NCBI GenBank assembly: GCA_019057865.1
Contig: JAHLWP010000013.1
Location: 26,181-90,180 of the forward strand
Reading direction: 5' to 3'
Length of the DNA: 64,000 nucleotides
DNA from: Promethearchaeota archaeon
GTDB taxonomy: Archaea > Asgardarchaeota > Lokiarchaeia > Sigyniarchaeales > SOKP01
In this document: positions 1 to 32,441 of the stretch, piece after piece
How the letters are laid out: the number at the start of each line of letters is the position of its first letter
How positions within the stretch are numbered: position 1 is the first letter of the stretch
Made by a program: the position numbers and the translations under genes
The notes under the pieces: generated by a model
Told to the model about the DNA's origin: nothing
The model's input: only the letters and a program-made list of their open reading frames with translations
Database searches by the model: none

Positions 1-215
1 TATTAAAATACGAAGATGTTGATAGGAATTATGTTAATTCTATTTTGAGAAAATGGGTCAAAAAGATTTTACTTGATCATAGAAAAAAATTACTACATGA
101 AGGAAGTCTTATTTTTAGGAAAATGTTAAGAGATAATTTATTAACTCCCTATGAAAAGATTAAAATCATCATAGTCGTTTTGCTAAAGAAAATCCAAATG
201 AAATTTTTCAAATAG
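1..215 (+). CDS. 3' end of a gene running in from outside the window (possibly a glycosyltransferase C-terminus)
   Basis: Open frame from position 3 (LKYEDVDRNY...MKFFK) to TAG at 213-215. Product guessed only from context. Confidence 0.55.
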   Translation, partial: LKYEDVDRNYVNSILRKWVKKILLDHRKKLLHEGSLIFRKMLRDNLLTPYEKIKIIIVVLLKKIQMKFFK

Positions 216-260: not shown

Positions 261-1400
261 TTACTTAAAAGTTAGAAAATCGTAAAAACGTTCACAAAAA
301 GCTTTCTTACCTTCCTTCGTCCATAATCTTTTATATATATTTTGTCCATTTTTAGCAACTTCATAAAGAAGTGTTTTATTTGCCAAGATTTCATTAAACT
401 CATTGTCCCAATTCTCAATTTTCCATGATATAGGTATATATGTATCTTGTTTTTTATATAAATTTGGCCAAGTTTCTACATGATCCATATCAGGCTTTAT
501 CAATGCCGCACCTGCTATAAAAGCTTCAAAATCTCGAAAACAGATTTCTCCCCATCCAAAAGGACTACAAATTGACTTAGATTTTCTTAAATTTATTAAA
601 TAATCCTTTTTAGGCATTTTTCCTATAGATATCTTCTGGTTAGACTTATACTTTTCTTTTAAAAACTTCAAGAGAGCATGTCGCTGAAAATAATATTTTG
701 GTTTAGTAATTTTATAAGAGAAATTTGCAGATAAAAGTATTTTTCGGTTTATACTTGGCTTACAAAAATTCATTTCATTTTTTCTTGTAAAACCATATAA
801 AAATCTATCAAAACTATTAGTAAAACGATAATCTGTTAATGCAAGGTTCCATGATAGGCTGACTTTATGATTATATTTTGGATCAAGAGAAGTATAATTT
901 AAAAATTCATTTTTTTTATTGTATAATTTGTCTAAATTATATTCTTTATTATAAAAGTTAATATAGATTCTGCTTTCTTTTTTAAAAGAATTTTTTGTAT
1001 AGAAAGTACGGTCTTTAAGAATAGACCTTTTTAAATATCGATCAACATAAGGTAATACTTCAAATCGAGTGGTTCCTGTACTGGCAGTGTTATCAAACCA
1101 TATTAAATAATCAGTTTTTTTCTTTAACACTTTAAGAGTTGATAATAATTCTTCCTTATTTCTTACCATTGTACCAAGGAATTTACAATCAATTCCTACT
1201 ATTTTTGAAAAATTTGTTTTTTTTCTAAAAATTCTACCAAAATCATGTAAAAATCGGACATTGATGCCCATATTTTTAAGTTCCTTTTTATAATACCATA
1301 CGGGAAACCAGTAGGAATTCCACTTATAGGTAGGGAAAGAATAGTTTTGGTATTTTCGAAAAGGGGTGAGTGTAGGGATAAATATATCCACATTAAGCAT
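261..1400 (-). CDS. Glycosyltransferase-like protein (GT-B, family 1/CgeB-like C-terminus)
   Basis: C-terminal SKSICSPFGWGEICFRDFEAFIAGAALIKP motif; lies in a glycan locus. Confidence 0.7.
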   Translation of the reverse strand: MLNVDIFIPTLTPFRKYQNYSFPTYKWNSYWFPVWYYKKELKNMGINVRFLHDFGRIFRKKTNFSKIVGIDCKFLGTMVRNKEELLSTLKVLKKKTDYLIWFDNTASTGTTRFEVLPYVDRYLKRSILKDRTFYTKNSFKKESRIYINFYNKEYNLDKLYNKKNEFLNYTSLDPKYNHKVSLSWNLALTDYRFTNSFDRFLYGFTRKNEMNFCKPSINRKILLSANFSYKITKPKYYFQRHALLKFLKEKYKSNQKISIGKMPKKDYLINLRKSKSICSPFGWGEICFRDFEAFIAGAALIKPDMDHVETWPNLYKKQDTYIPISWKIENWDNEFNEILANKTLLYEVAKNGQNIYKRLWTKEGKKAFCERFYDFLTFK

Positions 1401-1574
1401 TTAGTAAATCCCCTGTTTAAATATTGAAATTAGAAATCCTTTGTTTTATTTATAATTTTCCTAATATTTCTAATTATTAATAATTTATTACTTAAAATTG
1501 ATATAAAAAAATAAGGTATAAACTAAGTATCAATAAAGAAAAAAGATTTAAATAACTAGTTTGACAAAATCTTT

Positions 1575-3248
1575 TTATTTTCTTCTTGTAAATTTCTTTA
1601 AAACATTTAAAGTTTTAAGCATAATTCTATTTAAAAATTTATCCTTACTTAACAAAGACTCAAAATATTCAAAATCAGTAGATTTTACAATTCCAAAAAC
1701 TAAATTCATTAATATAAAGAGTACGATGAATGTTCCAATAGATAAAAAATCGAGATTTATAAAGAGTGATAACCCTAAATTATGTAAAATTGTAATGTTG
1801 ATTTTTTTTAATATTAAATCCTCTAAAATTACCGTAATAACTAAAGGGATAAAAAATGTTAAATATTGCAATATAATCTTTTTAATATTTATTTTAATAT
1901 TTCCGATTCTATAAATTGAGTATATTTGTATTATTAATGAGATTATATTTCCGATTATTAAACCTAAAATTATCGCACCTTCAACCCCACCATATGTTAA
2001 ACCAATAAAAAACAATGGTATAGAATACGTCATATAGAGTATATTTAATAGAAATGACGATTTTACTTTATTCTGGGCGTTTAAAAGCGATAGGACAAAG
2101 ATTTTGAATATTTGAAAAATTGACGCAAGAACAAATAATTTAAGAATATTTGAAAAAATTAAACGAGATTCGAGAAAAACAAAATCTAAGAAAAAGTCTA
2201 CACTAAAAAATAGAATTCCAGATAAAATTAATAATAAGAATAATGTAATCCTATTCGCAATCTTAAAAATTTTGACAACATGGTAATAATCCTTTTTTGT
2301 ACTCAAACTTGTAAAAGAAGTCATTAAAGGAAAATAAAAAGATCCTACTGACACTTGCCCGATATGACTGTAATTTAAGGCGATATTAAATCCAGTAACT
2401 GCTCCTGCTGATTCAAAAAACCCAACTCCTTGTAGTTGTGCTTCTCTCCAACCCTTTGCAAAAAGATTAGAAAAAGTTGAATAACCACCATATTTCACAC
2501 TTTTAAAAATATCTTTTTTAAATGGTTCTATCTCATTCCCTACCGGTTTAATTCTAATTACTTTTATCAAAACATATAAAAACTTTAAAATAAATGGAAT
2601 TAAGGAAGAAATCATGACAATCAAGGCTATAGTATCAATATTAATATTAATATCAAAAATATAGTAAATTAATAAAGGGCAAATATGAAAAGCATTTTTT
2701 ATGAGCAATATTAGAAAAAGAAAATTAAATTTACTAAAACCTCTATTTATAGCATCTAAAAGAGAGCCTAAACTATTGAAAAAAATAGTTGGAGATAAGA
2801 TAAATAAAATAGATACATTATCTTCCAAATTAATTACAAATAAATCTTCAAAAATAGTGAAAAAAACGATGCTTATTATGAGAATAATTATTGTAAATAA
2901 TGATTTTATAATTAGTGTATTTTTAATTAATGCCTTGATTTTTTTTTTCTCATTTAAGGCAAGATATCTTGGAATATAATAATTTAAGGCATGATTCAGT
3001 CCTGGTGGTAATAAGGATATAATAATACCAATAATTGTTATATATGAGGTTGCTAATATTAGAAAGTCCCAAGTTCTATCTAAAATTAATCGTGCTAAAA
3101 GAAAAGAATATATTAATGTGAAAAAAAAGGATCCATAATTTATTAAATAAGAGTAAAATGTATTTGTAGCTAATCTTTTGTACTCTTTATTATTTTTTAA
3201 TTGATTATTTTCATGGTTATTATTTACCATTATAAGAAAACATTTCAT
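1575..3248 (-). CDS. Wzx/MOP-type oligosaccharide flippase
   Basis: Many TM segments; N-terminal 'LATNTFYSYL...LLARLI' and 'GLNHALNYYIPRY' pattern of polysaccharide exporters. Confidence 0.8.
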   Translation of the reverse strand: MKCFLIMVNNNHENNQLKNNKEYKRLATNTFYSYLINYGSFFFTLIYSFLLARLILDRTWDFLILATSYITIIGIIISLLPPGLNHALNYYIPRYLALNEKKKIKALIKNTLIIKSLFTIIILIISIVFFTIFEDLFVINLEDNVSILFILSPTIFFNSLGSLLDAINRGFSKFNFLFLILLIKNAFHICPLLIYYIFDININIDTIALIVMISSLIPFILKFLYVLIKVIRIKPVGNEIEPFKKDIFKSVKYGGYSTFSNLFAKGWREAQLQGVGFFESAGAVTGFNIALNYSHIGQVSVGSFYFPLMTSFTSLSTKKDYYHVVKIFKIANRITLFLLLILSGILFFSVDFFLDFVFLESRLIFSNILKLFVLASIFQIFKIFVLSLLNAQNKVKSSFLLNILYMTYSIPLFFIGLTYGGVEGAIILGLIIGNIISLIIQIYSIYRIGNIKINIKKIILQYLTFFIPLVITVILEDLILKKINITILHNLGLSLFINLDFLSIGTFIVLFILMNLVFGIVKSTDFEYFESLLSKDKFLNRIMLKTLNVLKKFTRRK

Positions 3249-3559
3249 TGATAATATTAAATTAAAAAAAAAAAATAGTGAATTTCAAATTAATTTTATG
3301 ATTAAAGATTTTTCTTTTTGATTTAAAATTACAATTTAATACTTTCACTATGACGTATTTTTTCTTATGATTTCTTTTTAAGTAGAATTGTTTAAATTTT
3401 GATTAAGATAATTATATTCTGTCCTTTTATTGCCAAGAGATATTCATTAAATTTTTATCCTTTTAAAAATTATTCCACATGCATAGAATATTTGTAGTTT
3501 TTAATATTTCAATAAAAATGTATAGAAAGAGCATTATAAAAGAGTCTGATGGTGTTCGG

Positions 3560-5065
3560 ATGAATATTTTCTGGATTGTGACCGATTCGATATGTAGCTA
3601 TGAAAGATCTGATCTGCATAGTTTACTTCCAATCTACAAAAAATTAAAAAAAAATAAAGAAGGTTTCTTTTTTAAAAACGCATTATCTCAGTTCACATCA
3701 ACAAGTTTATCTATTTTTTCATTTTTAACAGGTAGATTTCCTTATTATATATTTCCTGATTATTACCCTTCAATCAAATTTCTTCCAAGTTATAAATATA
3801 AAAATAATATCAACCCATTGAAGAGAGAAAATTATAAAATTCAAGCAATTATGCACTCGAAAGAAGCAGTTGATGTTTTTAAGGATATTCTTAATCCATA
3901 TTATGTGAATAATATGTATCATGGAGATCATTTGTTAGATAGTAAAGAAGTTTACCATTTTTTAGCTGAAAAAATTAATGAACTCGATATAAATGAGAAC
4001 AATTTCATATATGTACATTTCAGACCAACGGATCCTGAAACAAATTCATACATGAATAAAATAGTTTATTTATTAAAGGAGATGGGTTTTTGGGAAAAAT
4101 CCATCATTATTATTAATTCTGATCATGGTTATTATGATAAGTCAATTTATAAAAAGATAAATTTAATACATTTTAATGATATTCACCAAACCTCATTATT
4201 ATCGGCTTTATTTATAAAATTACCCCCCAATTTAACATCTAAAATCCCAAGAACTATTAAAAAAAGAGTTTATTTAATGGATATTATGGAAACAATTCTT
4301 GATTATCTTAATATTAAAGCAGATCATGAGAGAGAATCAATTTCTTTTAAAGAATTAATAGAAAAAGATATAGATATTAATAAAAACAGAAAAATTAGAG
4401 GAGATTGTTATTTAATGTTTCAACCAATTAAAAAAACAGTGATAATCAAAGATAATTGGAAGCTTTTTAATAATAACGGAAAATTTACCTTGTATAATCT
4501 TAATGAAGATAATCTAGAAAAAAAAGATGTTAAAAAAAAATATCCTAAGATTTATACCGAACTATATCAATTTTATTTAGACACAGAATTGAAAGCTTAT
4601 AAAATATTTAAATCAACCTTAAATACACTTTATAATCATAATAATTTAACTTTACTAGAATATGAGAATATTTTAGTTCCTCATCAATTTCCTCCACAAC
4701 TAGCAAACTATTTAAAAGAAAATTTAAAGATAAAGAATAAAATAGTGAAACCATCTGAAATCGGTATCTCAAATTCAATCAAAAATCAAAGCTTGATTAC
4801 AATTCTATTTTTTAATAGATTAACTGGTTATAGATTAAAAAAACTGCAAAGAAAATATAGAAAATATACAAAAAAATTCATAATTTTAGATACAGCATTA
4901 TCTGATGTATCAGATCAAATAAATAATACTGGTTATATGAAATTTGTTATTAGATCATTAATTACCCGAAAAAAACAGTTGTTTCAAAGATGGAAAGAGA
5001 TACTAATATGGACTTTATATTTTCCACTTTATTTCAATAAATTTATGAAAAAATACTATAATTAA
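3560..5065 (+). CDS. Sulfatase/alkaline-phosphatase superfamily protein (candidate phospho(no)-transferase)
   Basis: MNIFWIVTDS start (ATG 3560 after GGTG), 'TSTSLS..SFLTG' Thr-type nucleophile region, 'IIIINSDHG', 'LYNLNED..E' motifs. Confidence 0.75.
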   Translation: MNIFWIVTDSICSYERSDLHSLLPIYKKLKKNKEGFFFKNALSQFTSTSLSIFSFLTGRFPYYIFPDYYPSIKFLPSYKYKNNINPLKRENYKIQAIMHSKEAVDVFKDILNPYYVNNMYHGDHLLDSKEVYHFLAEKINELDINENNFIYVHFRPTDPETNSYMNKIVYLLKEMGFWEKSIIIINSDHGYYDKSIYKKINLIHFNDIHQTSLLSALFIKLPPNLTSKIPRTIKKRVYLMDIMETILDYLNIKADHERESISFKELIEKDIDINKNRKIRGDCYLMFQPIKKTVIIKDNWKLFNNNGKFTLYNLNEDNLEKKDVKKKYPKIYTELYQFYLDTELKAYKIFKSTLNTLYNHNNLTLLEYENILVPHQFPPQLANYLKENLKIKNKIVKPSEIGISNSIKNQSLITILFFNRLTGYRLKKLQRKYRKYTKKFIILDTALSDVSDQINNTGYMKFVIRSLITRKKQLFQRWKEILIWTLYFPLYFNKFMKKYYN

Positions 5066-5246
5066 TTTAATATTTTATTCAAGAGAATATGTTTAAGAAT
5101 CTAAATTTTTAATGCCTTAATCAAAATAATTTAAAGATTGAAAGAAGTAATCCTATTAAATCCCGTTGATATAAATTCAAATAAACCCATCATTAAGAAA
5201 TCCATAAAAAATTTAATATTTAAAGCACTTATTTTTAATAGATCTT

Positions 5247-6938
5247 ATGAGCTTAAAAAATCGAATTTCACCTGAAGATAGAAGGAAATCCTTAAAAAAT
5301 TTACTTAAAGAAAAAGATTTTATAAGAGCTATTGAAGCTCATAATGGTTTAAGTGCAATAATTGCTAATGATATTAAAGAAAAAGTAAGAAACGAAATTA
5401 TTGAATTTGATGCCATTTGGGAAAGTAGTTTAACTGATAGTGCCACAAAGGGTTATCCAGATGCTGAAATAATAGGACCAGAATCTAGATATGAAACGAT
5501 ACGCCAAATTTTACATAGCTCTCATAAACCATTAATAGTAGATGGAGATACTGGCGGAGAAGCAACAAATTTTGAATATTTTGTGAAAAATTTGGAAGAT
5601 TTTGGTGTTTCAATGGTAATTATTGAAGATAAAAAATTTCCAAAAAGAAATAGTTTGGAAGCGGGGGCAATACAAATCCAAGAAGATCCAGATACTTTTT
5701 CGATAAAGATTAAAAGAGGTAAAAGTGTTTTATTATCGCAGGACTTTATGATAGCAGCTAGAATAGAAAGTCTTATTTCTGGAGCAGGAATAGAAGATGC
5801 CTTATTTAGAGCTAGAAAATATTTAATGGCTGGTGCTGATGCTATAATGATCCATTCAAAGGATTCAAAACCTAATGATATTTTTAAGTTTGCTGAAGAA
5901 TATAATAAGTTAAGCTCTGAATTAGGTTTTAGAAAGCCATTAATATGTGTTCCTACTACATATAATACCATTACGGAAGACGAATTAAAAGAACATGGCT
6001 TTAATATTGTGATATATGCAAATCATCTTTTACGATCATGTCATAAAGCTATGAAAGAAACAGCCTCTTTAATTTTGAGGAGTCAAAGATGTTTTGAGGC
6101 AGAACCTATGTGCAGTTCTGTTAATACTATTTTTAAAGATGTAGGTTTTCTTGAAGTAAAAGAAAAAGATATGAAATATTCTAAAGGAAAAACACGTGTA
6201 ATCATACCCGCAGCAGGTAAAGAACCAATTTTCAAAATTCCTAAATCAATGATAAAAATCAATGGAAAACCAATTCTTCAAAGACAAATAGAAACTTTAA
6301 ATAGCTGCGGTATTTATAACATTATTGTTGTTAGGGGATTTAAAAAAGAACTTATTGATATTCCAGGAGTCAAATATATTGATAATGAGAATTATGAAGA
6401 TTATGGATTATTATATTCTTTATTTAGAGCAGAAAGTGAAATGGAAGGGGGATTTATCTATATAAATTCAGATATATTGTTTGATGGACATATCATAAAT
6501 TCTCTTTTAGAATCTAAAAAGGATATTGTTTTGGTTGTTGATAATTCTTATGCTTACCATAAACATGAGATTGACAAAAGATTAGATCTAGTTATGACAT
6601 TGAATAAGCCATCTGACCAAAGGAGATTATTATATTCTCGAGATAATGAAGTAATAAGAATTGGTAAGAATATAGATAAAAGTATGGCAGACTATGAATA
6701 CATAGGGATTGCTTATTTTTCTGAATATGGTATTGATATAGTAAAAAAAATATTTCATGATTGTAGTTCTAATAATAAAGGATGTTTTCATGCTGTTTCT
6801 ATTGAGAAAGCTACTTTTAATGATTTTATTCAAGAAATAATTGATCGTGGTTTTAAGGTTCATAATCTAGAGATACATAAAGGATGGATAGAGATTCATA
6901 ATAAAAAAGATCTTGAACTGGCTGAAAAGCTAATTTAA
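5247..6938 (+). CDS. pepM: Phosphoenolpyruvate mutase fused to a C-terminal NTP-transferase (cytidylyltransferase) domain
   Basis: EAHNGLSA, DGDTGG, diagnostic EDKxxxxxNS (EDKKFPKRNS), ARIESLI, GADAIMIHS. C-terminal 'IIPAAG...PKSMI' NTP-transferase. Confidence 0.95.
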   Translation: MSLKNRISPEDRRKSLKNLLKEKDFIRAIEAHNGLSAIIANDIKEKVRNEIIEFDAIWESSLTDSATKGYPDAEIIGPESRYETIRQILHSSHKPLIVDGDTGGEATNFEYFVKNLEDFGVSMVIIEDKKFPKRNSLEAGAIQIQEDPDTFSIKIKRGKSVLLSQDFMIAARIESLISGAGIEDALFRARKYLMAGADAIMIHSKDSKPNDIFKFAEEYNKLSSELGFRKPLICVPTTYNTITEDELKEHGFNIVIYANHLLRSCHKAMKETASLILRSQRCFEAEPMCSSVNTIFKDVGFLEVKEKDMKYSKGKTRVIIPAAGKEPIFKIPKSMIKINGKPILQRQIETLNSCGIYNIIVVRGFKKELIDIPGVKYIDNENYEDYGLLYSLFRAESEMEGGFIYINSDILFDGHIINSLLESKKDIVLVVDNSYAYHKHEIDKRLDLVMTLNKPSDQRRLLYSRDNEVIRIGKNIDKSMADYEYIGIAYFSEYGIDIVKKIFHDCSSNNKGCFHAVSIEKATFNDFIQEIIDRGFKVHNLEIHKGWIEIHNKKDLELAEKLI

Positions 6939-6965
6939 CTATTTTTCGAAAAGTGGAATAATGAA

Positions 6966-8102
6966 ATGATTGAATTTATTGAAAATGGCTCTATTAAAAA
7001 TCTTAAACGCATTTTAAAAGAAAATAACTTTAAAAATATTTTTTACATTACAGGTAATTCACCTTTAGAACAAGGTAATGTTGATAAAATCCAATTTATA
7101 ATTGAGAATGAATGTAAATTTTTTCATTTTAATGATATTGCACCTACACCAACAGTTGAAGGTATTAAAAAGGCGCTAAATTTATTTAAGAAAGGTAATT
7201 ATGATTTAATTTTAGCTATGGGAGGGGGGTCTGTTTTAGATATTGGTAAAAGTGTATCAATTTTTTCTACTAATAAAGGAGAAATTGAAGATTTTCTTTT
7301 AAAGAAACTAAAAATTAAAAGAAAAGGTACTCCATTAATATTAATTCCAACTACAGCAGGAACGGGTAGTGAAGCTACTCATTTCACCGTTATCTTTATC
7401 AAAAAAACAAAATATTCTTTAGCAGATCCTAAAATTTTACATGCGGATTATGCAATCGTAGACCCTGAATTAACATATAGTCTCCCTAAGAGAGTTACTG
7501 CTTATACAGGTATGGATGCATTAAGTCAGGGAATAGAATCTTATTGGAATATCAATTCTACAGATGAATCAAAAGAATATGCAAAAAAAGCAATAGAGCT
7601 TGTTATGAATAATTTATTAAAAGCTGTTCATAATCCTAATGAAGAATCTAGATACAACATGGCACTTGCCGCTAATTATGCTGGAAAAGCTATAAATGTA
7701 ACAAAAACAACAGCATGTCATGCCATTTCGTATCCTATTACCTCATGTTTTAATGTACCTCATGGCCATGCAGTAGCTTTGACTTTACCTTCTATGATTG
7801 TCTTTAATTCGAGAGTTAATGAAAATGATGTATTAGATACACGTGGAGTTGAATACGTAAAAAATATTATGAGTAAATTAGCCTCTATAATAGGTGTTTC
7901 TAGTTTTATTGAATCAAAAGAAAAAATCAAAAATTTAATGGTAGCTATTGAATTAGAAATAAAATTACAGGATTTGGGAATAAAATCTCAAGAAGATATT
8001 GAAATAATTATAAAAAATGGTTTTAATCTTGATAGAGTTAAAAATAATCCGAGATTATTAACAGAAACTCAATTAAGAAATATTTTAGAAGAAATAAGAT
8101 GA
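6966..8102 (+). CDS. Iron-containing alcohol dehydrogenase, probable phosphonoacetaldehyde reductase
   Basis: GGGSVLDIGK, IPTTAGTGSEAT, HAISYP...VPHGHA; sits between pepM and ppd. Confidence 0.88.
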   Translation: MIEFIENGSIKNLKRILKENNFKNIFYITGNSPLEQGNVDKIQFIIENECKFFHFNDIAPTPTVEGIKKALNLFKKGNYDLILAMGGGSVLDIGKSVSIFSTNKGEIEDFLLKKLKIKRKGTPLILIPTTAGTGSEATHFTVIFIKKTKYSLADPKILHADYAIVDPELTYSLPKRVTAYTGMDALSQGIESYWNINSTDESKEYAKKAIELVMNNLLKAVHNPNEESRYNMALAANYAGKAINVTKTTACHAISYPITSCFNVPHGHAVALTLPSMIVFNSRVNENDVLDTRGVEYVKNIMSKLASIIGVSSFIESKEKIKNLMVAIELEIKLQDLGIKSQEDIEIIIKNGFNLDRVKNNPRLLTETQLRNILEEIR

Positions 8103-8815
8103 AAGTTATATTATTAAATGCGGGGATAGGTAAAAGGTTAGCCCCTTTAACCAACAATTTGCCAAAATGCCTTGTAAAAATAAGTAATAATGAAACAATT
8201 TTAGATCATCAATTAAAAAATATTCTTAAGTATGGATTTAAAGATTTTATCATTCCAACAGGTCCGTTTGAGGAGAAAATTAAAACTCATATTATAGAAC
8301 ATTATCCTTCAATTAACGTTCAATATATTAATAATCCACTTCATGACAAAACAAATTACATATATTCCATATATTTAGTAAAAGACATGATTAATGATGA
8401 TGTTTTATATTCTCATGGGGATTTAATATTTTCTGGAAATTTAGTAAAATTATTACTTAAATCGAGTTATAAAAATTGTGTATTAGTTAATAAAGAAATT
8501 CCTCCTCCAGTAAAAGACTTTAAAGCAATTATATTAAATGATAGAATAAGTAAAATTGGAGTTAATTTGTTCGGACAGAATGCTGCATTCTTAGCCCCGT
8601 TATACAAACTCACTAAGGAATTTATGTTAAGTTGGCTTAATCAAATAGAGAAATTTATAAATGATAACAAAGTAAATTATTATGCTGAAGATGCTTTAAA
8701 TGAAATTCTGGATACTCTTGTTCTAAAACCTTGTTATTATAATGAATTCTGTGTCGAAATTGATGATTATGAAGATTTAGAAGGAGTAAAAAATTATTTT
8801 AATAATAATAAGTAA
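8099..8815 (+). CDS. Phosphocholine/phosphonate cytidylyltransferase (LicC/PntC-like)
   Basis: LLNAGIGKRL.PLT..PKCL, TNYIYS, HGDL, EIDDYED; overlaps the previous stop codon (ATGA). Confidence 0.85.
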   Translation: MKVILLNAGIGKRLAPLTNNLPKCLVKISNNETILDHQLKNILKYGFKDFIIPTGPFEEKIKTHIIEHYPSINVQYINNPLHDKTNYIYSIYLVKDMINDDVLYSHGDLIFSGNLVKLLLKSSYKNCVLVNKEIPPPVKDFKAIILNDRISKIGVNLFGQNAAFLAPLYKLTKEFMLSWLNQIEKFINDNKVNYYAEDALNEILDTLVLKPCYYNEFCVEIDDYEDLEGVKNYFNNNK

Positions 8816-8838
8816 AATAGTAGTTAATATAGGATAAA

Positions 8839-9975
8839 ATGATTTCTTGCGAAAAATTTTTTGAAATTCTAAAAATTAATAATTTTACATTCTTTACAGG
8901 AATTCCAGACTCAACTTTTAAAGATTTTATGAAATTCTTAGCTGATAATGATAGTAAAGATCTAAGAAATATTGTTGCATGTAATGAATGCGAAGCTATT
9001 GCATTAGCATCTGGTTATCATTTAGCAACTAATAAAATAGGAATTGTATATATGCAGAATTCTGGACTTGGTAAGGCTGTTAATCCTCTTACATCCTTAT
9101 GTGATCCTGATGTATATTCCATTCCAATTCTTTTAATGATAGGATGGCGTGGTGAACCTGGAAAAATTGATGCTCCTCAACATAAAAAAATGGGAAAGAT
9201 TACATTACCATTATTGGACACACTCCAAATACCTTATATCGTATTGGAACCAGATTTAAGTGTAGTTAAAAAAGAACTTATTAAAGCATTAAATTATTTC
9301 AATGAAATTAAAGGACCATATGCTTTTGTTTTTCGAAGAGGTTTCTTTAAAGAGCATAAAGTGAAATTTAAGCAATTAAATAACTATAGTCTAACCATAG
9401 AAGAAGTAATTCAATTGATTATGGATAATTTGAACAACGATGAAATCATTGTTTCAACTACAGGTTATATTACACGAGAGCTATATGAATATAGAGAATC
9501 AAGAAATAAAGATCATCATAAAAGTTTTTATAATATTGGTTCTATGGGGTGTGCCAGCTCGATAGGATTAAGTATAGCGCTACACAAACCAAAAAATAGA
9601 GTTATAGTATTTGATGGAGATGGCGCAGCTATTATGCAAATGGGTTCTTTTACAACAATAGGAAAAAATTCACCTTCTAACTTTGTCCATATTATTTTAG
9701 ATAATGAAGCTCATGAATCTACTGGTGGTCAACCAACTAATTCATCTAATGTTGACTTTGTAAATATTGCGCTCGCATCAAATTATAAATGGGGTGTTCG
9801 AGTTGAAAACATCGAAGATTTATTAAAATCGATTGATAAAATTAAAAACCGAAAAGGCCCAATCTTAGTATTAATAAAAATCAAAATCTATTCTAGATCA
9901 GAATTAAAAAGACCAAGTAAAAGTCCAAAAGAGTATAAAGAAGGATTTATGAGATATTTAAATGATTTAGATTAA
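8839..9975 (+). CDS. ppd: Phosphonopyruvate decarboxylase
   Basis: FTGIPDS, MQNSGLG, GWRGEPG..DAPQH, GSMGCAS, ThDP motif DGDGA...N, HESTGGQ. Confidence 0.95.
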   Translation: MISCEKFFEILKINNFTFFTGIPDSTFKDFMKFLADNDSKDLRNIVACNECEAIALASGYHLATNKIGIVYMQNSGLGKAVNPLTSLCDPDVYSIPILLMIGWRGEPGKIDAPQHKKMGKITLPLLDTLQIPYIVLEPDLSVVKKELIKALNYFNEIKGPYAFVFRRGFFKEHKVKFKQLNNYSLTIEEVIQLIMDNLNNDEIIVSTTGYITRELYEYRESRNKDHHKSFYNIGSMGCASSIGLSIALHKPKNRVIVFDGDGAAIMQMGSFTTIGKNSPSNFVHIILDNEAHESTGGQPTNSSNVDFVNIALASNYKWGVRVENIEDLLKSIDKIKNRKGPILVLIKIKIYSRSELKRPSKSPKEYKEGFMRYLNDLD

Positions 9976-10121
9976 GGAACTTAATAATTACCTATAAAAA
10001 TTTATTTTTTATGAACATTTTTATATGATATGAAATTTTTTATGATAAAATATAATTTAATAAAAAAATAGGATTTTTTTAATAAAAGGTAAATAATTTA
10101 AGTTTTTTTGTTGAAATACCA

Positions 10122-11114
10122 ATGACCTTACCCAGATCAAGTGACTTTTGGAAAAGTAGACGCATTTTAATAACTGGAGCTGCTGGTTTTATAGGAAGTA
10201 ATTTAACAGATAAATTATTAGAAATTGGAGCAGAAGTAATTGGTTTAGATAATCTATTTAACGGTAGGATTGAAAATTTAGAAGAAGCTTTGAAAAATAA
10301 AAAATTTCAATTTCATAAGGGAGATATAAGAGATATAAACTTTTTATTAGATATTTTAAAAGATATTGATATTATATTTCATAAAGCAGCATTCACTAGT
10401 GTCCCTCAATCAGTAAAAATGCCAGAATCTTGCAATGATGTCAATGTAAATGGCACTTTAAATTTATTAAACGCTGCTAGAAAAAAAGATGTAGAAAAAA
10501 TTATCTTTGCTTCAAGTTCTTCTGTATATGGTGATACACCTACCTTACCAAAGAAAGAAGATATGCCAAGATTACCAATCTCTCCCTATGGAGTATCAAA
10601 GTTAGCGTGTGAGGCATATATGCAGGCATTTCACCAGGTTTATGGATTAAAAACAATTTCATTAAGATATTTCAACGTTTTTGGTCCAAGGCAAAAAGAT
10701 TCTCCATATAGTGGTGTTATCGCAATTTGGTTAGGAAGAATCATTAATAATGAAGATTTGATAATATTTGGTGATGGCGAACAATCAAGAGATTTTACAT
10801 ACATTAAAGATGTGGTCCAAGCAAATTTAATGGCCGCTGAACATGATGTTTCAGGAGAGATCTTAAATGTAGGCGCTGGTTCTCCAATAACTTTAAACGA
10901 TCTTGCAAAATTAATTCTAAATATTACAAATAAAAAGAATTTAAAACTAATTTACACTGATCCTAGACCAGGTGATATTTTACACAGTTACGCTGATATT
11001 TCTAAAGCCAAAAGAATAATTGGATTTCAACCGGAATATGATCAGGAACAAGGCTTAAGAGATTATTTTATATGGTATTGTAAAAAGTATAACGTTAATT
11101 TAAAAATTAACTAA
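10122..11114 (+). CDS. NAD-dependent NDP-sugar epimerase (WbpP/GalE-like SDR)
   Basis: TGAAGFIGS, ASSSSVYG, YGVSK, RYFNVFGPRQ. Confidence 0.9.
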   Translation: MTLPRSSDFWKSRRILITGAAGFIGSNLTDKLLEIGAEVIGLDNLFNGRIENLEEALKNKKFQFHKGDIRDINFLLDILKDIDIIFHKAAFTSVPQSVKMPESCNDVNVNGTLNLLNAARKKDVEKIIFASSSSVYGDTPTLPKKEDMPRLPISPYGVSKLACEAYMQAFHQVYGLKTISLRYFNVFGPRQKDSPYSGVIAIWLGRIINNEDLIIFGDGEQSRDFTYIKDVVQANLMAAEHDVSGEILNVGAGSPITLNDLAKLILNITNKKNLKLIYTDPRPGDILHSYADISKAKRIIGFQPEYDQEQGLRDYFIWYCKKYNVNLKIN

Positions 11115-11119
11115 GAAAT

Positions 11120-13399
11120 ATGAATAGGCTTAGATTGAATCAAATACTTTTTAAGGTCAAATCCAGAAAGAATTTATTTATTTTCATTCTTTCTTTAATA
11201 TCTTTAGGAATTATCCTTCTTAAGTTAGTTAATATTGATGAAATTATTGGAATATCGGATATGTTCCTGTTGGGTTTCATTTATCAAATAGCAATTGCTT
11301 TTAGTACAATTTTTACCATACTATTCTTACCTACTTATCCCATTTTTTTTATTTTTTTTAAAGAAAAATCTTTTAATTTTTTAGAGAAACTGAGTTTGAC
11401 TATTATTATTAATTCAGTTTTCTATATCTTTACAGGATATATTGGTTATTGGTTTGGAGTTCCTTTAACCGGGACTTTTTTCTTTTGTGCAATAATTATT
11501 TTATTCTTTCCAATAATATTTTATATTATTTACTCTGAATTTAAAAATGGGCCATATAAATTTCTTAGAAGTGAAATATCGTCAATACAAAGTGATCGAA
11601 ATTTAATTAATTTTTCTTTATTTAACTACTTTAAAAAGCTAATTTCTGTTAATGCCCTTTTATTGATAGTTTTTATATTCTTAATCTGCATCTCATATAT
11701 TGTTAAAGTTAGCTATTTTGGAGGGACAGATCCATGGCTCCATGTTCTTAATAGTAGAATAATAACTGACATTAATTATTTACCTTTAGAAGGATATCAT
11801 GGAACTATGGGTTTAAATATATTTGGAGCTGTGATTTATTTTTTTTCGGGAATAAATCATTTGCTAATTCCAAGATATTTTGTTTTTTATACATTTTTTG
11901 TATCCGCCTTAATATTTTATAATATTCTCATGAGAATCTTCAGAAATAGAAACTTAGCAATTTTTGGTGTATTTATATTAGAATTCTCTTCATTAGGTTT
12001 TTCTACTATGATGCTTCAATATTGGCCATCCGGCTCAGCTCTGATCAAATGCCTAGCAATTTTCTTTCTTCTATATGTAAGATTGCAGGATTTTATTCAA
12101 CCCGAACGACCCTCTAAAAACCTTATTTTAAAAGATATATTTTTATTTTACATTCTAATAATCTTAATTTTTATTAGTGCTGTTCTTACGCATGTTGTTA
12201 CATCTATGGTTTTATTAATTTCCTTTTTATGGTTATATTTTGTATATTTTATAAAAGATTATAGACGGGGAGTTGATTTTATATTTCTATGTGGATTAAT
12301 TGGTATATTTTTAATTTTAAACTTATTTGGTATAGGCTCTGGTCATTATTGGTTTTTTATTCCATTTGATTTTCCAATTCAGCTACTTATTTTAGGCGCA
12401 ATCATGGGAGGAATAATAGGAATATTTTTTTTATGGAGGGTACAAAAATCAATTATTTTCACAAAAGGAAGGTATAAATTAATAATAACAGGGAAAAGAA
12501 GTAGATATTATAAGAAAATAGAAGACAAAATAATAATTCCACTAATATTTAGTATAACTATCTCGTTTACTCTTCTTTTTTTAATAGCAAACCTCTTTTG
12601 GTTTAATTTTCATATAGTGAATATCTTTTATGTTGCTGAAATCCTAATTATTAGTTCTTTTGCAATCTGGGGTTTTGTATTATATCAAAAAAAACCAAAA
12701 GGAAAGCCATTGTTTTTATGGTCTATAGGTCTTTTGGTTCTTTTAGCCGCGGGTTTTATTTTTAATATCTTATTTTTAAGCAATATGATTTGGCAGAGAA
12801 TTTTATATTTAATTCCTCCTGCTATTGTGATTGGATTTGTGTCATATATTTATAAACTAATTAAGATTGGTTCCATAAGAGCAATAAAATTGAAAATATT
12901 AATTTTATTTTTAGTATCCTTTTCATTATTTTCCACTTGTTTTTATGATTCTATTGCGTTTGAAGTTTTCAATTTAAAGAGAAGAGATGTATCTAATATC
13001 AGATGGTACTCTCGTTATACTTCTAATAGAAATGTAATTATTTCAGAATTCGGTTGGAGTTATATTTTTAAATATTATGATTATCCATTTGACAATAGAA
13101 GTGAAGCTCTTCTTTATAATGAAACAGATTATTTCTTGAAATATGATATTGATTTATTTCCCCCAGAAAACCATTTTGATGAAAATGGAACAAATATTTT
13201 ACAAGAAATAAAGAGAGAGTATAACACGGATGTTTATATAATATTTGATGGGGTTTATATAATTAATAAAGATTTTGAGTTGTTTGGGCAGTTGACGGAG
13301 GAAGAAGAAGAAATATATTATACTCTGGATTATTTAAATAAGATTTGTTCTTCAATGACTGAGAATGGAGAGGAAACACCTACATTTTGGGTTATTTAA
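11120..13399 (+). CDS. Large polytopic membrane protein (GT-C-like)
   Basis: More than 15 hydrophobic segments, 'GTDPWLH' loop motif, soluble C-terminus; glycan-locus context. Confidence 0.6.
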   Translation: MNRLRLNQILFKVKSRKNLFIFILSLISLGIILLKLVNIDEIIGISDMFLLGFIYQIAIAFSTIFTILFLPTYPIFFIFFKEKSFNFLEKLSLTIIINSVFYIFTGYIGYWFGVPLTGTFFFCAIIILFFPIIFYIIYSEFKNGPYKFLRSEISSIQSDRNLINFSLFNYFKKLISVNALLLIVFIFLICISYIVKVSYFGGTDPWLHVLNSRIITDINYLPLEGYHGTMGLNIFGAVIYFFSGINHLLIPRYFVFYTFFVSALIFYNILMRIFRNRNLAIFGVFILEFSSLGFSTMMLQYWPSGSALIKCLAIFFLLYVRLQDFIQPERPSKNLILKDIFLFYILIILIFISAVLTHVVTSMVLLISFLWLYFVYFIKDYRRGVDFIFLCGLIGIFLILNLFGIGSGHYWFFIPFDFPIQLLILGAIMGGIIGIFFLWRVQKSIIFTKGRYKLIITGKRSRYYKKIEDKIIIPLIFSITISFTLLFLIANLFWFNFHIVNIFYVAEILIISSFAIWGFVLYQKKPKGKPLFLWSIGLLVLLAAGFIFNILFLSNMIWQRILYLIPPAIVIGFVSYIYKLIKIGSIRAIKLKILILFLVSFSLFSTCFYDSIAFEVFNLKRRDVSNIRWYSRYTSNRNVIISEFGWSYIFKYYDYPFDNRSEALLYNETDYFLKYDIDLFPPENHFDENGTNILQEIKREYNTDVYIIFDGVYIINKDFELFGQLTEEEEEIYYTLDYLNKICSSMTENGEETPTFWVI

Positions 13400-14180
13400 T
13401 AAACTCAAAATCATTTGGAAAATAATCTTCAATTTTTTCTTTCAATATTTTTGTTGTGTTACCTTCAATTTTTATTAATTGAGGGATTTTTCCTATTTGC
13501 CCAATTTTACCTTTCCTGTAAATAAAGGCGCCAAATAAACCATCAACATCATTAACAGCATCTAAGCCTTTCTTTATAGATCCTTCAATATCGTTTCCCT
13601 TCACTAAATTTCCGATCGCTGTAGCAGCTCCATCTGCTAAAGTGGCATTTTCTGCAAAAATTGTAACTACATCTGCTTGACCAAGACTAATTGCATGACC
13701 TATTGTTGCAGAACTTGTAGCAATTCCTATGGGGCAATCATGCTTTTTAATTAAAAATCCCAAGTTTAAATTTAATTCATTAAATCCGGCATAAAGTGCT
13801 ATTTTCAAAGGTTTTTCAGATTCAATAGCAATTTCACCACCATTTTCAACAAGTGCGATTTTAACAGGAATAAAATCATTCTCATCCTTAACTTTCATAG
13901 ATTCTATCATTAGATCTGCAAAAGCTCCTGCTACTGTTGCCATAGGTCCTACATTGCAGATACCCGCTGCATTTGCCATCAGATTAATAATTTTTAAATC
14001 AGTTATAACCTTTACTGGAGAAAAAGAAATAAGAAAATCATTATTTTCTAATAAGAATTTTTCTAAATTATTTCTATGATAATAAAACGCTTCTTTTGCT
14101 CTTAATATCGCATTTTTCGATTCTGAAATAATTGTTATATCAGACTCTTTTTCCGTAAAATGAGATCTAAATATTTTCAA
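13392..14180 (-). CDS. UPF0280/ApbE-like protein
   Basis: VGPMATVAGAFAD, VENGGEI, ATSSATIGHAISLGQAD, ADGAATAIGN. Confidence 0.85.
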   Translation of the reverse strand: MKIFRSHFTEKESDITIISESKNAILRAKEAFYYHRNNLEKFLLENNDFLISFSPVKVITDLKIINLMANAAGICNVGPMATVAGAFADLMIESMKVKDENDFIPVKIALVENGGEIAIESEKPLKIALYAGFNELNLNLGFLIKKHDCPIGIATSSATIGHAISLGQADVVTIFAENATLADGAATAIGNLVKGNDIEGSIKKGLDAVNDVDGLFGAFIYRKGKIGQIGKIPQLIKIEGNTTKILKEKIEDYFPNDFEFIK

Positions 14181-14290
14181 TCTAATATGCTATTGAGTTT
14201 GATTAAAATCTTATTTTATAGAGCTTTATTTTTAAATAAATATAAATAAATAATTTTACATTATTTATTAAAAAACAACATCTCTTAATA

Positions 14291-14782
14291 ATGATTCAAA
14301 TTAATTACGAGGAAATTATCTCTCAACTTAAATCTGATTTAAAAGCTGAATGTGCTATAGCAAATAAGTATGGAATAGTGTTAGATTCTTTAATTAAAGA
14401 ATTTGCTAAAGGAAAAGTCATTCCACAAAAAATCATTTCTTTAATTGCAAGTTCTAAAGAAATTGCTAATGAGTTAAAGTTAAACCGAATCAATTCATTT
14501 ACTCTAGAAGCCCAGAAGTATAATTATTTATTTTCTTTCAGTGAAGAATTAATTTTAATATCAAAACTAGATTTAAATGTAAATTTAGCAAAGTTTATGC
14601 CAAGTATCAGTGTATTTTTAAAAAAATTAAGTGAAAGCTCTAAAGAGAAAGAAATTAAAAAATTTACAGTTTTCGATTTTTCCAAAGAAATCTCAAAAAT
14701 CGAAGAGACATTAAAAAGAGAACAAATTAAACAAGATAAATATTCAATTATTAAAGATCTAGTAAAACTTATTTCCGATTGA
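14291..14782 (+). CDS. Roadblock/LAMTOR-like protein
   Basis: Helix, then 'CAIANKYGIVLDS' beta hairpin pattern; directly upstream of a GTPase. Confidence 0.55.
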   Translation: MIQINYEEIISQLKSDLKAECAIANKYGIVLDSLIKEFAKGKVIPQKIISLIASSKEIANELKLNRINSFTLEAQKYNYLFSFSEELILISKLDLNVNLAKFMPSISVFLKKLSESSKEKEIKKFTVFDFSKEISKIEETLKREQIKQDKYSIIKDLVKLISD

Positions 14783-18763: not shown

Positions 18764-19294
18764 TTAATGAGTTCTGGAATCAATAATTCGACCAGTAAGT
18801 TCAGTAAATGCCTCATCTACACTTACACCTGTTTTTGCCGAAGTTTCTATATAAATACTACCCTCATTTTCGGCAAATGATCTTGCATCATTACGATCAA
18901 TGACTATTCCTACATCTTCAACCAAATCAGCTTTATTTCCAATTAATACAAAGGGGATATTCTCTCCTGCAAATTGACGGATTTCTGTGAGCCATTTTCT
19001 AGTTTCTGTATATGTTTGTTCCCTTGTTAAATCAAATACTAATAATGCCCCCGCGGCTCCTTTATAAAATGTGCTACGTATAAATTCAAACCTTTGTTGT
19101 CCACCTATATCCCAAATGCTTAATGTAGCAATTTCTCCTTGTCGAAACTCAACATCTTTAGTTAAAATATCAACACCGACAGTTAATTTATAATTTGCTT
19201 GAAACCTATTCTTTATAAAGCGCTGAACGAGTGATGTTTTACCTACAGCCGCGGCACCAGTTAATAGAACTTTTAGCTTAAAACTTGACATCAC
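18764..19294 (-). CDS. Rab-like small GTPase
   Basis: GAAAVGKT, TVGVD, WDIGGQQRF, FYKGA, NKAD, ETSAK; no C-terminal Cys. Confidence 0.92.
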   Translation of the reverse strand: MMSSFKLKVLLTGAAAVGKTSLVQRFIKNRFQANYKLTVGVDILTKDVEFRQGEIATLSIWDIGGQQRFEFIRSTFYKGAAGALLVFDLTREQTYTETRKWLTEIRQFAGENIPFVLIGNKADLVEDVGIVIDRNDARSFAENEGSIYIETSAKTGVSVDEAFTELTGRIIDSRTH

Positions 19295-31706: not shown

Positions 31707-32441
31707 ATGAACTTGGAAGAAAATGAAAGATTGGCAGAATTAATAGGTATTATATTAGGTGATGGAAATTTATTTGATAATGGTAGACATTATGTTTTAG
31801 GAATTTCCTTGAATTACGTTAGAGACGCGGAATATGTTAATTATGTAAGAGATTTAATTAAAAATGTTTTTAATATTGATCCTAAATTAAATTATAGGAA
31901 ACAAAGTCATCAAGTAGAGATTAGAGTATTCAGAAAAGAAGTAGTTTTTGCTTTGGTTTCTAAGGGATTAAAAACAGGAGATAAAATTAGAAATCAAATA
32001 GGTGTTCCGGAGTGGATATTAAATAATAGAACATATGTCCTCGCTTGTCTTAGAGGGTTAATAGATACTGACGGCTCAATTTTTCTTAATAAACATAATA
32101 AGATAATTGGAATAAATTTTAAAAATACCTCCATTCCTCTCATTACTGATTTCAAGATAATGTGTCAAAAACTAGGTATTAAAACTTCTGTAATTACACG
32201 TAATGAAAAATTGCGGAAAGGATATAAAATTTCAATCCAATCTAAAAATGAAGTTGCTAAATTTCTTTATACACTTAAACCTAAAAGATGGATTCATCAC
32301 TTTAGAGATCTCATAAATATATTAAATAAATATGAAATTATATTTGAAGACCTTTTTAAGTATAAGAGAGAAAAATGTTTACGTTTTTACCCTAAAAAGT
32401 TAATTCATGAAATAAAAGAAGCATTTCCCCAATTTTTTTAA
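31707..32441 (+). CDS. Free-standing double-motif LAGLIDADG homing endonuclease
   Basis: LAELIGIILGDG and LRGLIDTDGS motifs; no intein splicing ends. Confidence 0.9.
   Translation: MNLEENERLAELIGIILGDGNLFDNGRHYVLGISLNYVRDAEYVNYVRDLIKNVFNIDPKLNYRKQSHQVEIRVFRKEVVFALVSKGLKTGDKIRNQIGVPEWILNNRTYVLACLRGLIDTDGSIFLNKHNKIIGINFKNTSIPLITDFKIMCQKLGIKTSVITRNEKLRKGYKISIQSKNEVAKFLYTLKPKRWIHHFRDLINILNKYEIIFEDLFKYKREKCLRFYPKKLIHEIKEAFPQFF

Follow-up and report, generated by a model that had tools for sequence, protein, structure and literature searches.

A predicted 2-hydroxyethylphosphonate cassette in a variable surface-glycan locus of a Loki-type archaeon

A cassette of four genes, predicted to encode the complete enzyme set from phosphoenolpyruvate (PEP) to 2-hydroxyethylphosphonate (2-HEP, or HEP), was found in the genome of a Promethearchaeota archaeon, where it lies inside a locus of surface-glycan genes. 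The DNA analysed, hereafter the window, is a stretch of 64,000 nucleotides (C18:26181-90180; GenBank contig JAHLWP010000013.1) from a 4.26-Mb assembly of 87 contigs with a completeness of 99.67% and a contamination of 5.15%. The analyses described below established to which enzyme families PepM and Ppd belong, which folds the models show, that the gene order is conserved and how the cassette is distributed. Given these results, we consider it probable that the cassette makes 2-HEP and activates it for the decoration of a surface glycoconjugate. Positions are those of the window unless a contig or locus is named; C denotes a contig of the host assembly, G a genome, L a locus, g a genus and f a family.

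A conserved set of genes for a predicted route from PEP to 2-HEP

Within positions 3479-13399 there are seven co-directional genes on the + strand, which encode a sulfatase-fold protein, a PepM fusion, an iron-dependent alcohol dehydrogenase (Fe-ADH, or ADH), a nucleotidyltransferase (NTase) named NT2, Ppd, an epimerase of the short-chain dehydrogenase/reductase (SDR) family and a 759-aa membrane protein. The core four genes, pepM, adh, NT2 and ppd, span 5247-9975 with spacings of 27, -4 and 23 nt, and the set stays together in every PepM-bearing genus-mate and also in DPANN, Thermotogaceae and other lineages. A first-pass annotation of the window, made by a model from the letters alone, had read these genes as a complete pathway from PEP to 2-HEP, and our searches agree with it: the enzyme set is complete and conserved as a unit, and the Fe-ADH, the second nucleotidyltransferase and ppd are all present with scores far above chance.

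The gene pepM (5247-6938, +) encodes a 563-aa fusion of a PEP mutase domain (residues 1-300; 5247-6146) with a nucleotidyltransferase (NT) domain of family PF12804 (residues 319-436). The PEP mutase domain matched the equivalog model TIGR02320 with 330.9 bits (cut-off 319.55; model positions 1-278 of 284), and with 333.1 bits in the genome-level search, and it aligned over its full length to the solved PEP mutases 5unc and 1m1b (E ~5e-44). [quoted passage not shown] An alignment of eight diverse sequences showed that D72, D99, D101, E127, K133, N135, S136, R172 and H203 are invariant. On the basis of the 1m1b alignment, we take these residues, S136 aside, to be the equivalents of Mytilus D58, D85, D87, E114, K120, N122, R159 and H190. 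The host genome contains a single PepM. Both the motif and the fusion to an NTP-transferase had been pointed out in the first-pass annotation, and the equivalog score, the motif position and the PF12804 match bear this out.

The protein encoded by ppd (8839-9975, +) is a phosphonopyruvate decarboxylase, an enzyme dependent on thiamine diphosphate (ThDP). It carries both ThDP domains (PF02776 and PF02775) and matched the equivalog model TIGR03297 with 437.2 bits (cut-off 312.5; positions 1-360 of 360). The predicted steps up to phosphonoacetaldehyde are therefore assigned at the equivalog level.

The gene adh (6966-8102, +) encodes a group III Fe-ADH (PF00465, 129 bits; PF25137, 128 bits). From the cassette context we infer that this enzyme is the phosphonoacetaldehyde reductase that forms 2-HEP, since its place in the cassette is fixed and translationally coupled (the 4-nt overlap with NT2 is conserved together with the position), since it is found together with PepM, Ppd and NT2 in Asgard archaea, DPANN, Thermotogaceae, Falkowbacteria and others, and since in genus g11 a gene for a class-V aminotransferase (Aminotran_5) replaces adh, as expected of a fork between 2-aminoethylphosphonate (AEP) and HEP. 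Phosphonoacetaldehyde is the branch point between these two products (PMC8942020). In g11, loci L048:9533-14418 (G170) and L057 (G175) hold an AEP-type cassette consisting of PepM-NT, Ppd, an NTase of the Glu type described below and the class-V aminotransferase, with a TagF-like gene close by.

No AEP transaminase gene is present in the window, as had been noted before, and none was found above cut-off in the whole genome either; the best genomic match for PhnW was a class-V aminotransferase on C69 (162 bits, cut-off 360.8), and all 14 control genomes also matched. Genome searches further returned no PhnJ and no PhnX above cut-off, and LicD (PF04991) had no match in the locus or in the 99.67%-complete genome. 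Lack of phosphonate recycling genes is the pattern reported for marine producers that use phosphonates structurally (PMC8931226), and the absence of LicD, PhnJ and above-cut-off PhnX and PhnW fits structural use rather than recycling.

Two LicC/PntC-like nucleotidyltransferases

The NT domain fused to PepM (6174-6938, +) is MobA/LicC-like, with 37.4 bits for PF12804 and matches to LicC (1jyk, E 1.8e-11) and PntC (6pd1, E 7e-6). It reads 'IIPAAG', 5-9 residues and then 'PK', and the GxGxR loop is missing from all 34 fused sequences compared, which come from Asgard archaea, Nitrospinota, Thermoplasmata and Falkowbacteria. Judging from this, the fused domain may be catalytically divergent or non-catalytic.

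The stand-alone NT2 (8099-8815, +; 238 aa; PF00483, 50.2 bits) matched LicC (1jyk, E 2.2e-11) and Tde-PntC (6pd1, E 3.6e-6) and possesses the full G-x-G-x-R...PK signature: NAGIGKRLAPLTNNLPK. The first-pass annotation had proposed PntC-type activation enzymes, and both proteins do resemble LicC and Tde-PntC; CTP and HEP are the predicted substrates of NT2. Tde-PntC is a crystallised AEP cytidylyltransferase in which Glu104 hydrogen-bonds the amine of AEP (PMC6697681). NT2 carries His106 (SHGDL) at this position and the fused domain carries Asn (INSD), so the Glu specific to AEP enzymes is found in neither. Comparison with other loci showed that His occupies the position in 29 NT2-type sequences of ADH-type loci from many phyla, whereas Glu occupies it in 9 of 9 stand-alone NTases of aminotransferase-type loci (Asgard g11, Clostridium, Erysipelotrichaceae, Ekhidna and Coriobacteriaceae). 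The fused domains have Asn or Tyr there regardless of the branch enzyme, and the NT2 clade is confined to ADH-type loci.

Because His goes with ADH-type and Glu with aminotransferase-type loci, NT2 is likely a HEP-specific cytidylyltransferase. The idea that the residue covaries with the branch enzyme was tried and rejected: there are two clades with only one or two independent transitions, so the pattern is a subfamily association and the residue serves as a clade marker only. In the literature, the sole HEP cytidylyltransferase that we found is the PF01467 domain of Fom1, which is unrelated to NT2.

A sulfatase-fold protein is the candidate for the transfer step

Between the flippase candidate and pepM, the first-pass annotation had placed a glycosyltransferase (GT). 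This was not sustained, as the gene (3560-5065, +) encodes a 501-aa sulfatase-fold protein of the alkaline-phosphatase superfamily (PF00884, 30.8 bits, cut-off 25) with Thr at the formylglycine position; its real start is put at about 3560 because the relatives have 501 aa. The protein has neither a transmembrane (TM) segment nor a signal peptide, and its gene, which lies 181 nt upstream of pepM in the same orientation, was found in 17 of 17 genomes of the genus that have PepM.

The family is nearly restricted to Asgard archaea, with 56 clusters at 38% identity or more and the next match at 27%. D9, D188 and H189, the metal-binding Asp...Asp-His set, are invariant in it, and S187-D188-H189-G190 and H204 are conserved. 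Thr48 (T48-S-L-S) aligns with the Cys of CTPAR in true sulfatase outgroups, and the Pro and Arg of CxPxR are gone, so the protein is not a formylglycine sulfatase; the nucleophile position holds Thr in 21 Asgard sequences and Ser in 2. A Thr nucleophile with retained metal ligands is the pattern of the phosphoryl-transfer members of the superfamily (EptA, LtaS, NPP) and not of sulfatases. The AlphaFold2 (AF2) model (pLDDT 79.7) gave S1 sulfatases (E ~3e-13) and YejM as its best Foldseek matches, and the fold therefore does not separate a hydrolase from a transferase.

In other Asgard cassettes, transferases acting on CDP-linked groups stand at the matching place, TagF-like in g2, g11 and g12 and LicD in f13; in the genus of the window, the sulfatase-fold gene stands where these cassettes have TagF-like or LicD genes. 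The sulfatase-fold protein is accordingly placed as the leading candidate phosphonyl transferase (or phosphodiesterase), and transfer is the weakest link of the proposed pathway. It could serve any nucleotide-activated head group: in G204, which has no PepM, the gene lies beside a third NTase, a major facilitator superfamily (MFS) transporter and a CDP-alcohol phosphatidyltransferase.

Two further arrangements were seen in related loci. In f13 (L053:5330-7439 of G033, L054 and L124), LicD and a 451-aa protein of no Pfam family precede the cassette; this 451-aa protein recurs with LicD, and in G234 it occurs with a CDP-alcohol phosphatidyltransferase. Within the genus of the window, a four-gene module of CDP-alcohol phosphatidyltransferase, sulfatase-fold protein, third nucleotidyltransferase (NTP_transf_3) and MFS transporter (L039:4493-9400 in G206; L144:6570-12745 in G204) accompanies the phosphonate cassette, and G204 has it in the absence of the cassette. 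The combination of an importer with an NTase but no kinase suggests that a ready-made phospho(no) compound is taken up and activated.

The cassette lies in a surface-glycan locus

The glycan locus extends over about 25 kb and begins about 11 kb before the window. The 11 kb upstream encode a GT2, a NosD-like beta-helix protein, three GT4 proteins, an SDR, a methyltransferase, an unassigned 293-aa protein and a second GT2. The last gene of this upstream block (C18:15030-26395) is a GT2 glycosyltransferase gene of 303 aa (PF00535, 128 bits), which starts 696 nt before the window and whose 3' end occupies 1-215 (+). Altogether, at least six GTs, two SDRs, a methyltransferase, a flippase-like protein and a protein with the fold of the membrane glycosyltransferases of class GT-C lie within the 25 kb. 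The surface-glycan setting proposed in the first-pass annotation is thus confirmed, as GTs and the flippase-like and GT-C-fold proteins surround the cassette.

On the left of the cassette, a gene at 261-1400 (-) encodes a 379-aa soluble protein that is possibly a GT-B glycosyltransferase, since its neighbours by ESM features are Glyco_trans_1_2 clusters (score 0.98); it had no match in Pfam or NCBIfam. It is 97% identical in G179 and missing from the other genus-mates, which confines it to the locus variant of the window and G179. The next gene (1575-3248, -) encodes a 557-aa multi-TM protein that is a Wzx/MOP-like flippase candidate. That assignment, also made in the first-pass annotation, holds only in part: the many TM segments and the conserved place (54-91% identity at the same position in genus-mates) support it, but the Polysacc_synt score of 21 bits (E 2.6e-4) is below the cut-off of 28.2.

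On the right, the NAD-dependent sugar-nucleotide epimerase/dehydratase (10122-11114, +), a TviC/GalE-like SDR, was verified by PF01370 (226.9 bits), with a score below cut-off for TviC (NF011728, 246 bits). It is followed by the 759-aa protein (11120-13399, +), which had been called GT-C-like and whose predicted fold substantiates this name. Its AF2 model has a pLDDT of 85.8 and a pTM of 0.90, and the 24 best PDB matches in Foldseek are all GT-C proteins (STT3, PglB, AglB, DPY19, AftA and ALG12; probability 1.0, E down to 6.6e-6). No Pfam family matched it even at E 5, STT3 included, and a canonical STT3 homologue is encoded elsewhere (C60, 163 bits). D204 and H208 are invariant. The gene is present in genus-mates with or without PepM and forms the conserved right edge of the variable locus.

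A second glycan locus of the same genome (G000:C66:24500-31500; L159) encodes two GT2, an FkbM methyltransferase, a GT4, an SDR and a TagF-like CDP-glycerol-type phosphotransferase.

No unassigned ORF of the size of MpnS or HEPD was found in C18:13000-41000, as judged by ORF size, with no genome-wide MpnS or HEPD profile search made. In relatives, a gene of 437-443 aa between the sulfatase-fold gene and pepM was considered as MpnS/HEPD and rejected, because it matched the Pfam MFS transporter family with 164-188 bits.

The contig is archaeal and the cassette recurs in its genus

The host is a metagenome-assembled genome (MAG) of the Loki type. Promethearchaeota is a phylum within the archaeal kingdom Promethearchaeati, and the name is that now used for the Asgard group. 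The best 120 homologues of the PepM fusion are 55-99% identical to it and all have the two-domain architecture; the named sources among them are Promethearchaeota/Lokiarchaeota MAGs, apart from one label each for Hermod-, Odin- and Aenigmarchaeota. Elsewhere in the window several Asgard-typical proteins are encoded, among them Arf-like and Ras-like small GTPases, an E1-like ThiF, an IFT52-GIFT domain protein, a GPN-loop ATPase, TrmB and RACo. These homologues and flank genes, together with a HEP-type cassette in 'Ca. Lokiarchaeum ossiferum', labelled as of the same order, support the Loki-like archaeal host named at first.

The first-pass annotation had allowed that the contig might be chimeric or non-archaeal. 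The cassette was found at the same position, with the same conserved flank (the GT-C protein, a PRK04334-family protein, a 163-aa protein and an Arf-like GTPase), in more than 10 further genomes of the genus, and identical gene order with an archaeal flank in more than 10 independent MAGs excludes a chimeric or bacterial contig. The G+C content of the window is about 27%, and along the cassette it is 0.25-0.28, the same as in the flanks, so the composition carries no sign of recent foreign origin.

Of 400 genomes searched in the phylum, 42 had a PepM above cut-off; the figures were 33 of 134 for the family of the window, 16 of 53 for the other members of its genus and 7 of 90 for high-quality genomes. 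A survey across Asgard MAGs, as had been suggested for the check, therefore gives a patchy distribution. 'Ca. Lokiarchaeum ossiferum' (CP104013; G138, L051), a single contig of ~4.93 Mb, has PF01467-PepM, Ppd, Fe-ADH and a His-type NT2, as well as a divergent NTase and an MFS transporter transcribed divergently from the cassette. Its description reports complex, unordered surface densities and no ordered S-layer, and does not mention phosphonates.

An unrooted maximum-likelihood tree of 111 PepM domains was built by quick search with SH-like approximate likelihood ratio test (SH-aLRT) support. The PepM of the window falls in a clade (support 98) made up solely of Asgard sequences of family f1, all with the C-terminal NT fusion. 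This clade lies within a group of support 100 that also contains Nitrospinota, Chloroflexota, a Thermoplasmata MAG, a Methanosarcinales MAG, a 'Deltaproteobacteria' MAG and a Falkowbacteria MAG, the internal order being unresolved. Families f3, f13, f15 and f16 and one f1 genome have another PepM lineage, with an N-terminal PF01467 cytidylyltransferase domain, which is mixed with Woesearchaeota and Nanoarchaeota. The phylum thus has at least two PepM lineages. The phylogeny, proposed earlier as a check on horizontal transfer, clearly indicates transfer of PepM between domains; its direction is not readable from an unrooted tree.

The nearest bacterial PepM-NT fusions, 58-60% identical, are those of the Nitrospinota loci L066-L075, which lack genes for Ppd, Fe-ADH and an aminotransferase in the 6 kb to each side; these fusions may feed a different early branch.

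The locus itself is highly variable. PepM-negative genus-mates retain the right-hand flank with different adjoining content, and G184 and G190 have wholly different GT and SDR genes there. Most PepM-positive genus-mates have an NTase-MFS pair between the sulfatase-fold gene and pepM, which is absent in the window, G179 and G210. When G208 (L041) was compared with positions 3560-14782, identity was 85-97% from the GTPase through ADH and fell to 70% in PepM-NT and 66% in the sulfatase-fold protein; moreover, the PepM of the window groups with genera g12 and g2 and not with the main clade of its own genus. These two results point to recombination inside the locus, and the fall in identity indicates a breakpoint between the adh and pepM genes. 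By analogy, the exchange would resemble that of O-antigen and capsule loci, and the cassette appears to be an accessory module that one Lokiarchaeial family exchanges within a hypervariable glycan locus.

Some further features of the window were recorded. Directly beside the conserved edge of the glycan locus, 14928-16967 (+) encodes a 679-aa protein with an Arf/Roc-type GTPase domain, syntenic in every genus-mate checked, and, also directly beside this edge, 18764-19294 (-) encodes a 176-aa Ras-family GTPase. A 2121-aa ORF (21633-27998, +) lies in a strand-asymmetric stretch (GC skew 0.20-0.28, AT skew ~0.35), and a 244-aa free-standing LAGLIDADG-domain protein is encoded at 31707-32441 (+). 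The tRNA and Rfam scans of the window gave no matches; the sigma-70 promoter scan gave 109 sites where 107.7 were expected, and there were 7 terminator-like sites against 3.9; these counts are uninformative, and the models are not suited to archaea.

A proposed pathway and its alternatives

Based on these results, we propose the following pathway. PepM would isomerise PEP to phosphonopyruvate, and Ppd would decarboxylate phosphonopyruvate to phosphonoacetaldehyde, pulling the unfavourable equilibrium. Fe-ADH would then reduce phosphonoacetaldehyde to 2-HEP, and NT2 would convert 2-HEP and CTP to CMP-HEP, the PepM-fused NT-like domain being possibly non-catalytic. On the cytoplasmic face, the sulfatase-fold protein would most likely place the phosphonyl group, via a covalent Thr48-phosphonyl intermediate, on a hydroxyl of a lipid-linked oligosaccharide that the GT2, GT4, SDR and methyltransferase proteins nearby would assemble. 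The flippase-like protein would export the decorated glycan, and the GT-C-fold protein would deliver it to the final acceptor. The substrate of the ADH, the use of CTP and HEP by NT2, the glycan target and the choice of transferase are predictions from sequence and gene context. Since no MpnS-sized gene is found in the locus, HEP itself is likely the end group. The phosphonoglycan-decorated surface suggested in the first-pass annotation gains support from the complete enzyme set in a glycan locus, with the glycan endpoint as a predicted one.

Several results weigh against this pathway. The ADH falls below the Phn_Fe-ADH equivalog TIGR03405 (189.7 bits, cut-off 423.7) and scores 196.9 bits for lactaldehyde reductase, and in the NTase tree the His/Glu trait changes twice, giving one or two independent pairs. 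The closest solved folds of the sulfatase-fold protein are hydrolytic sulfatases, and its gene is also present in 5 PepM-negative genus-mates, such as G204 with a completeness of 100%, so that it cannot be specific to phosphonates. The TagF-like enzyme of C66, 41% identical to the cassette-linked TagF-like protein of g2, could act as transferase in trans, and several genus-mates have a CDP-alcohol phosphatidyltransferase beside the cassette, as would suit a lipid head group.

Four other explanations were weighed. One is that HEP is made and cytidylylated as proposed and the sulfatase-fold protein is a hydrolase with a role in trimming, recycling or something unrelated, transfer being left to the TagF-like protein of C66, the 379-aa or 293-aa protein, or a GT. 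The structural matches to hydrolytic S1 sulfatases, the five genus-mates without PepM and the TagF-like gene in the same genome all speak for it, and we regard it as a serious possibility that nonetheless falls short of being probable: the TagF-like gene sits in a separate glycan locus, the missing CxPxR rules out a formylglycine sulfatase, and the protein is cytoplasmic, with its gene co-oriented with and close upstream of pepM in every PepM-positive genus-mate. Another explanation keeps the same HEP/CMP-HEP pathway and makes the phosphonate the polar head group of a membrane lipid. Most cassette-bearing genus-mates have the CDP-alcohol phosphatidyltransferase (PF01066) next to the sulfatase-fold gene, and bacterial PepM clusters with CDP-alcohol transferases and multiple sulfatases have been classed as phosphonolipid groups (PMC8942020). 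Such a transferase is absent from the locus of the window, G179 and G210, however; GTs, the flippase-like protein and the GT-C protein flank the cassette of the window on both sides, and G204 keeps the CDP-alcohol transferase module without PepM, which makes the module independent of phosphonate. A glycan is favoured over a lipid because the surrounding genes are glycan genes, and we consider a phosphonolipid improbable, though the genus-mates that carry the phosphatidyltransferase might make one.

We attach little weight to a diffusible small-molecule phosphonate (an antimetabolite) or a processed product such as methylphosphonate. HEP is a common intermediate of fosfomycin, phosphinothricin, dehydrophos and methylphosphonate (PMC8942020), and the cassette of genus-mates contains an MFS transporter, yet the locus has no radical-SAM, ATP-grasp, non-ribosomal peptide synthetase or cupin/HEPD/MpnS-sized gene, its neighbouring genes are all glycan genes, and the 437-aa transporter gene of relatives is missing from the window. 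Equally doubtful is the explanation in which the Fe-ADH uses another aldehyde and the distant class-V aminotransferase yields AEP as the decoration. The low Phn_Fe-ADH score and the PhnW match on C69 would permit it, but that match is far under its cut-off and recurs in 14 of 14 control genomes, the ADH is translationally coupled inside the cassette, and NT2 is of the His clade, for which no aminotransferase partner was seen, whereas a Glu-clade NTase serves the true AEP loci, Asgard g11 included.

Going further than the HEP-glycan pathway itself, we put forward tentatively, as a possibility that we would not call probable, that the sulfatase-fold protein is a phosphonyl/phosphoryl head-group transferase of a new, nucleotide-dependent class, which moves HEP from CMP-HEP onto a lipid-linked glycan in place of LicD or TagF-like enzymes, and that the His-type NT2 clade is the first LicC-fold HEP-specific cytidylyltransferase. 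Together they might give Lokiarchaeia a phosphatase-resistant, strain-variable coat.

Comparison with known systems

In bacterial Pnt clusters, PepM fused C-terminally to a MobA/LicC-like domain is the commonest form (33% of Ppm), and a further LicC-like nucleotidyltransferase stands by itself one or two genes off, amid cell-surface glycan genes (Rice et al. 2019, PMC6697681). The cassette of the window resembles them in the fusion, the extra enzyme and the setting. It differs in that the characterised PntCs act on AEP beside an aminotransferase, whereas the window has an Fe-ADH and an NT2 with His for Glu104, and in its Asgard host and the sulfatase-fold protein in place of LicD.

The mpn cluster of Nitrosopumilus maritimus, an archaeal precedent, and the HEP-glycans of Stackebrandtia and Glycomyces share the PepM-Ppd-Fe-ADH route to HEP for a polysaccharide conjugate (summarised in PMC8942020). 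Unlike these clusters, the locus of the window has no MpnS-sized gene, belongs to another phylum and is a hypervariable locus bounded by a GT-C enzyme. The N. maritimus mpn cluster reportedly has sulfatase-like and nucleotidyltransferase genes too, as Metcalf and colleagues are said to have described in 2012. Fom1 of the fosfomycin pathway likewise has a cytidylyltransferase domain fused to PepM, of family PF01467 and biochemically shown to act on HEP, and its PF01467-PepM architecture is exactly that of other Asgard families, 'Ca. L. ossiferum' included. The fusion partner in the window is a C-terminal PF12804 domain, not an N-terminal PF01467 domain, and there is no Fom3-type methylase.

EptA/MCR-1, LtaS, OpgB and BcsG have the PF00884 fold with Thr in place of formylglycine and a metal site of a single Asp plus Asp-His, as the sulfatase-fold protein does. 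These enzymes use a Thr or Ser nucleophile, are membrane-anchored and extracytoplasmic, and take phospholipids as donors. By contrast, the protein of the window lacks TM segments and a signal peptide, would need a nucleotide-activated donor and has sulfatases as its closest folds. The 759-aa protein resembles AglB/STT3/PglB, DPY19 and AftA in its GT-C membrane fold, in a small soluble domain at the C-terminus and in an Asp of the first large loop that is invariant; it differs from the AglB/STT3 type in lacking an STT3 Pfam match, in TM-scores of only 0.35-0.48 and in the separate canonical STT3 of the genome.

Implications for the Asgard cell surface

The pathway, the PepM-NT fusion, the phosphonoglycan idea and the archaeal precedent in Nitrosopumilus are already known, and public MAG annotation already names the genes 'phosphoenolpyruvate mutase'. 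A full-text literature search of incomplete coverage returned no paper linking phosphonate biosynthesis with Asgard archaea or Lokiarchaeota. What appears to be new is that Asgard archaea have the cassette, how frequent it is among them and that it stems from two lineages, its place as a module that can be exchanged in a hypervariable glycan locus with an unclassified GT-C enzyme at its border, and two candidate enzyme families for late steps.

The envelope chemistry of Asgard archaea is almost unknown. Their unusual envelope, with many surface proteins and no ordered S-layer (PMC9834061), is believed to provide the contacts between cells that underlie syntrophy and eukaryogenesis. A patchy but conserved cassette predicts a measurable surface modification, as the C-P bond is visible by 31P nuclear magnetic resonance, and the prediction is testable now because the cultured 'Ca. 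L. ossiferum' has a HEP-type cassette. The His-type LicC-like NTase and the Thr-type sulfatase-fold protein are candidates for the late steps of phosphonoglycan assembly. The cassette varies among closely related species, as would be expected under pressure from viruses, grazers or partners, and its activity would add sediment Asgard archaea to the HEP-type phosphonate producers in the phosphorus redox cycle.

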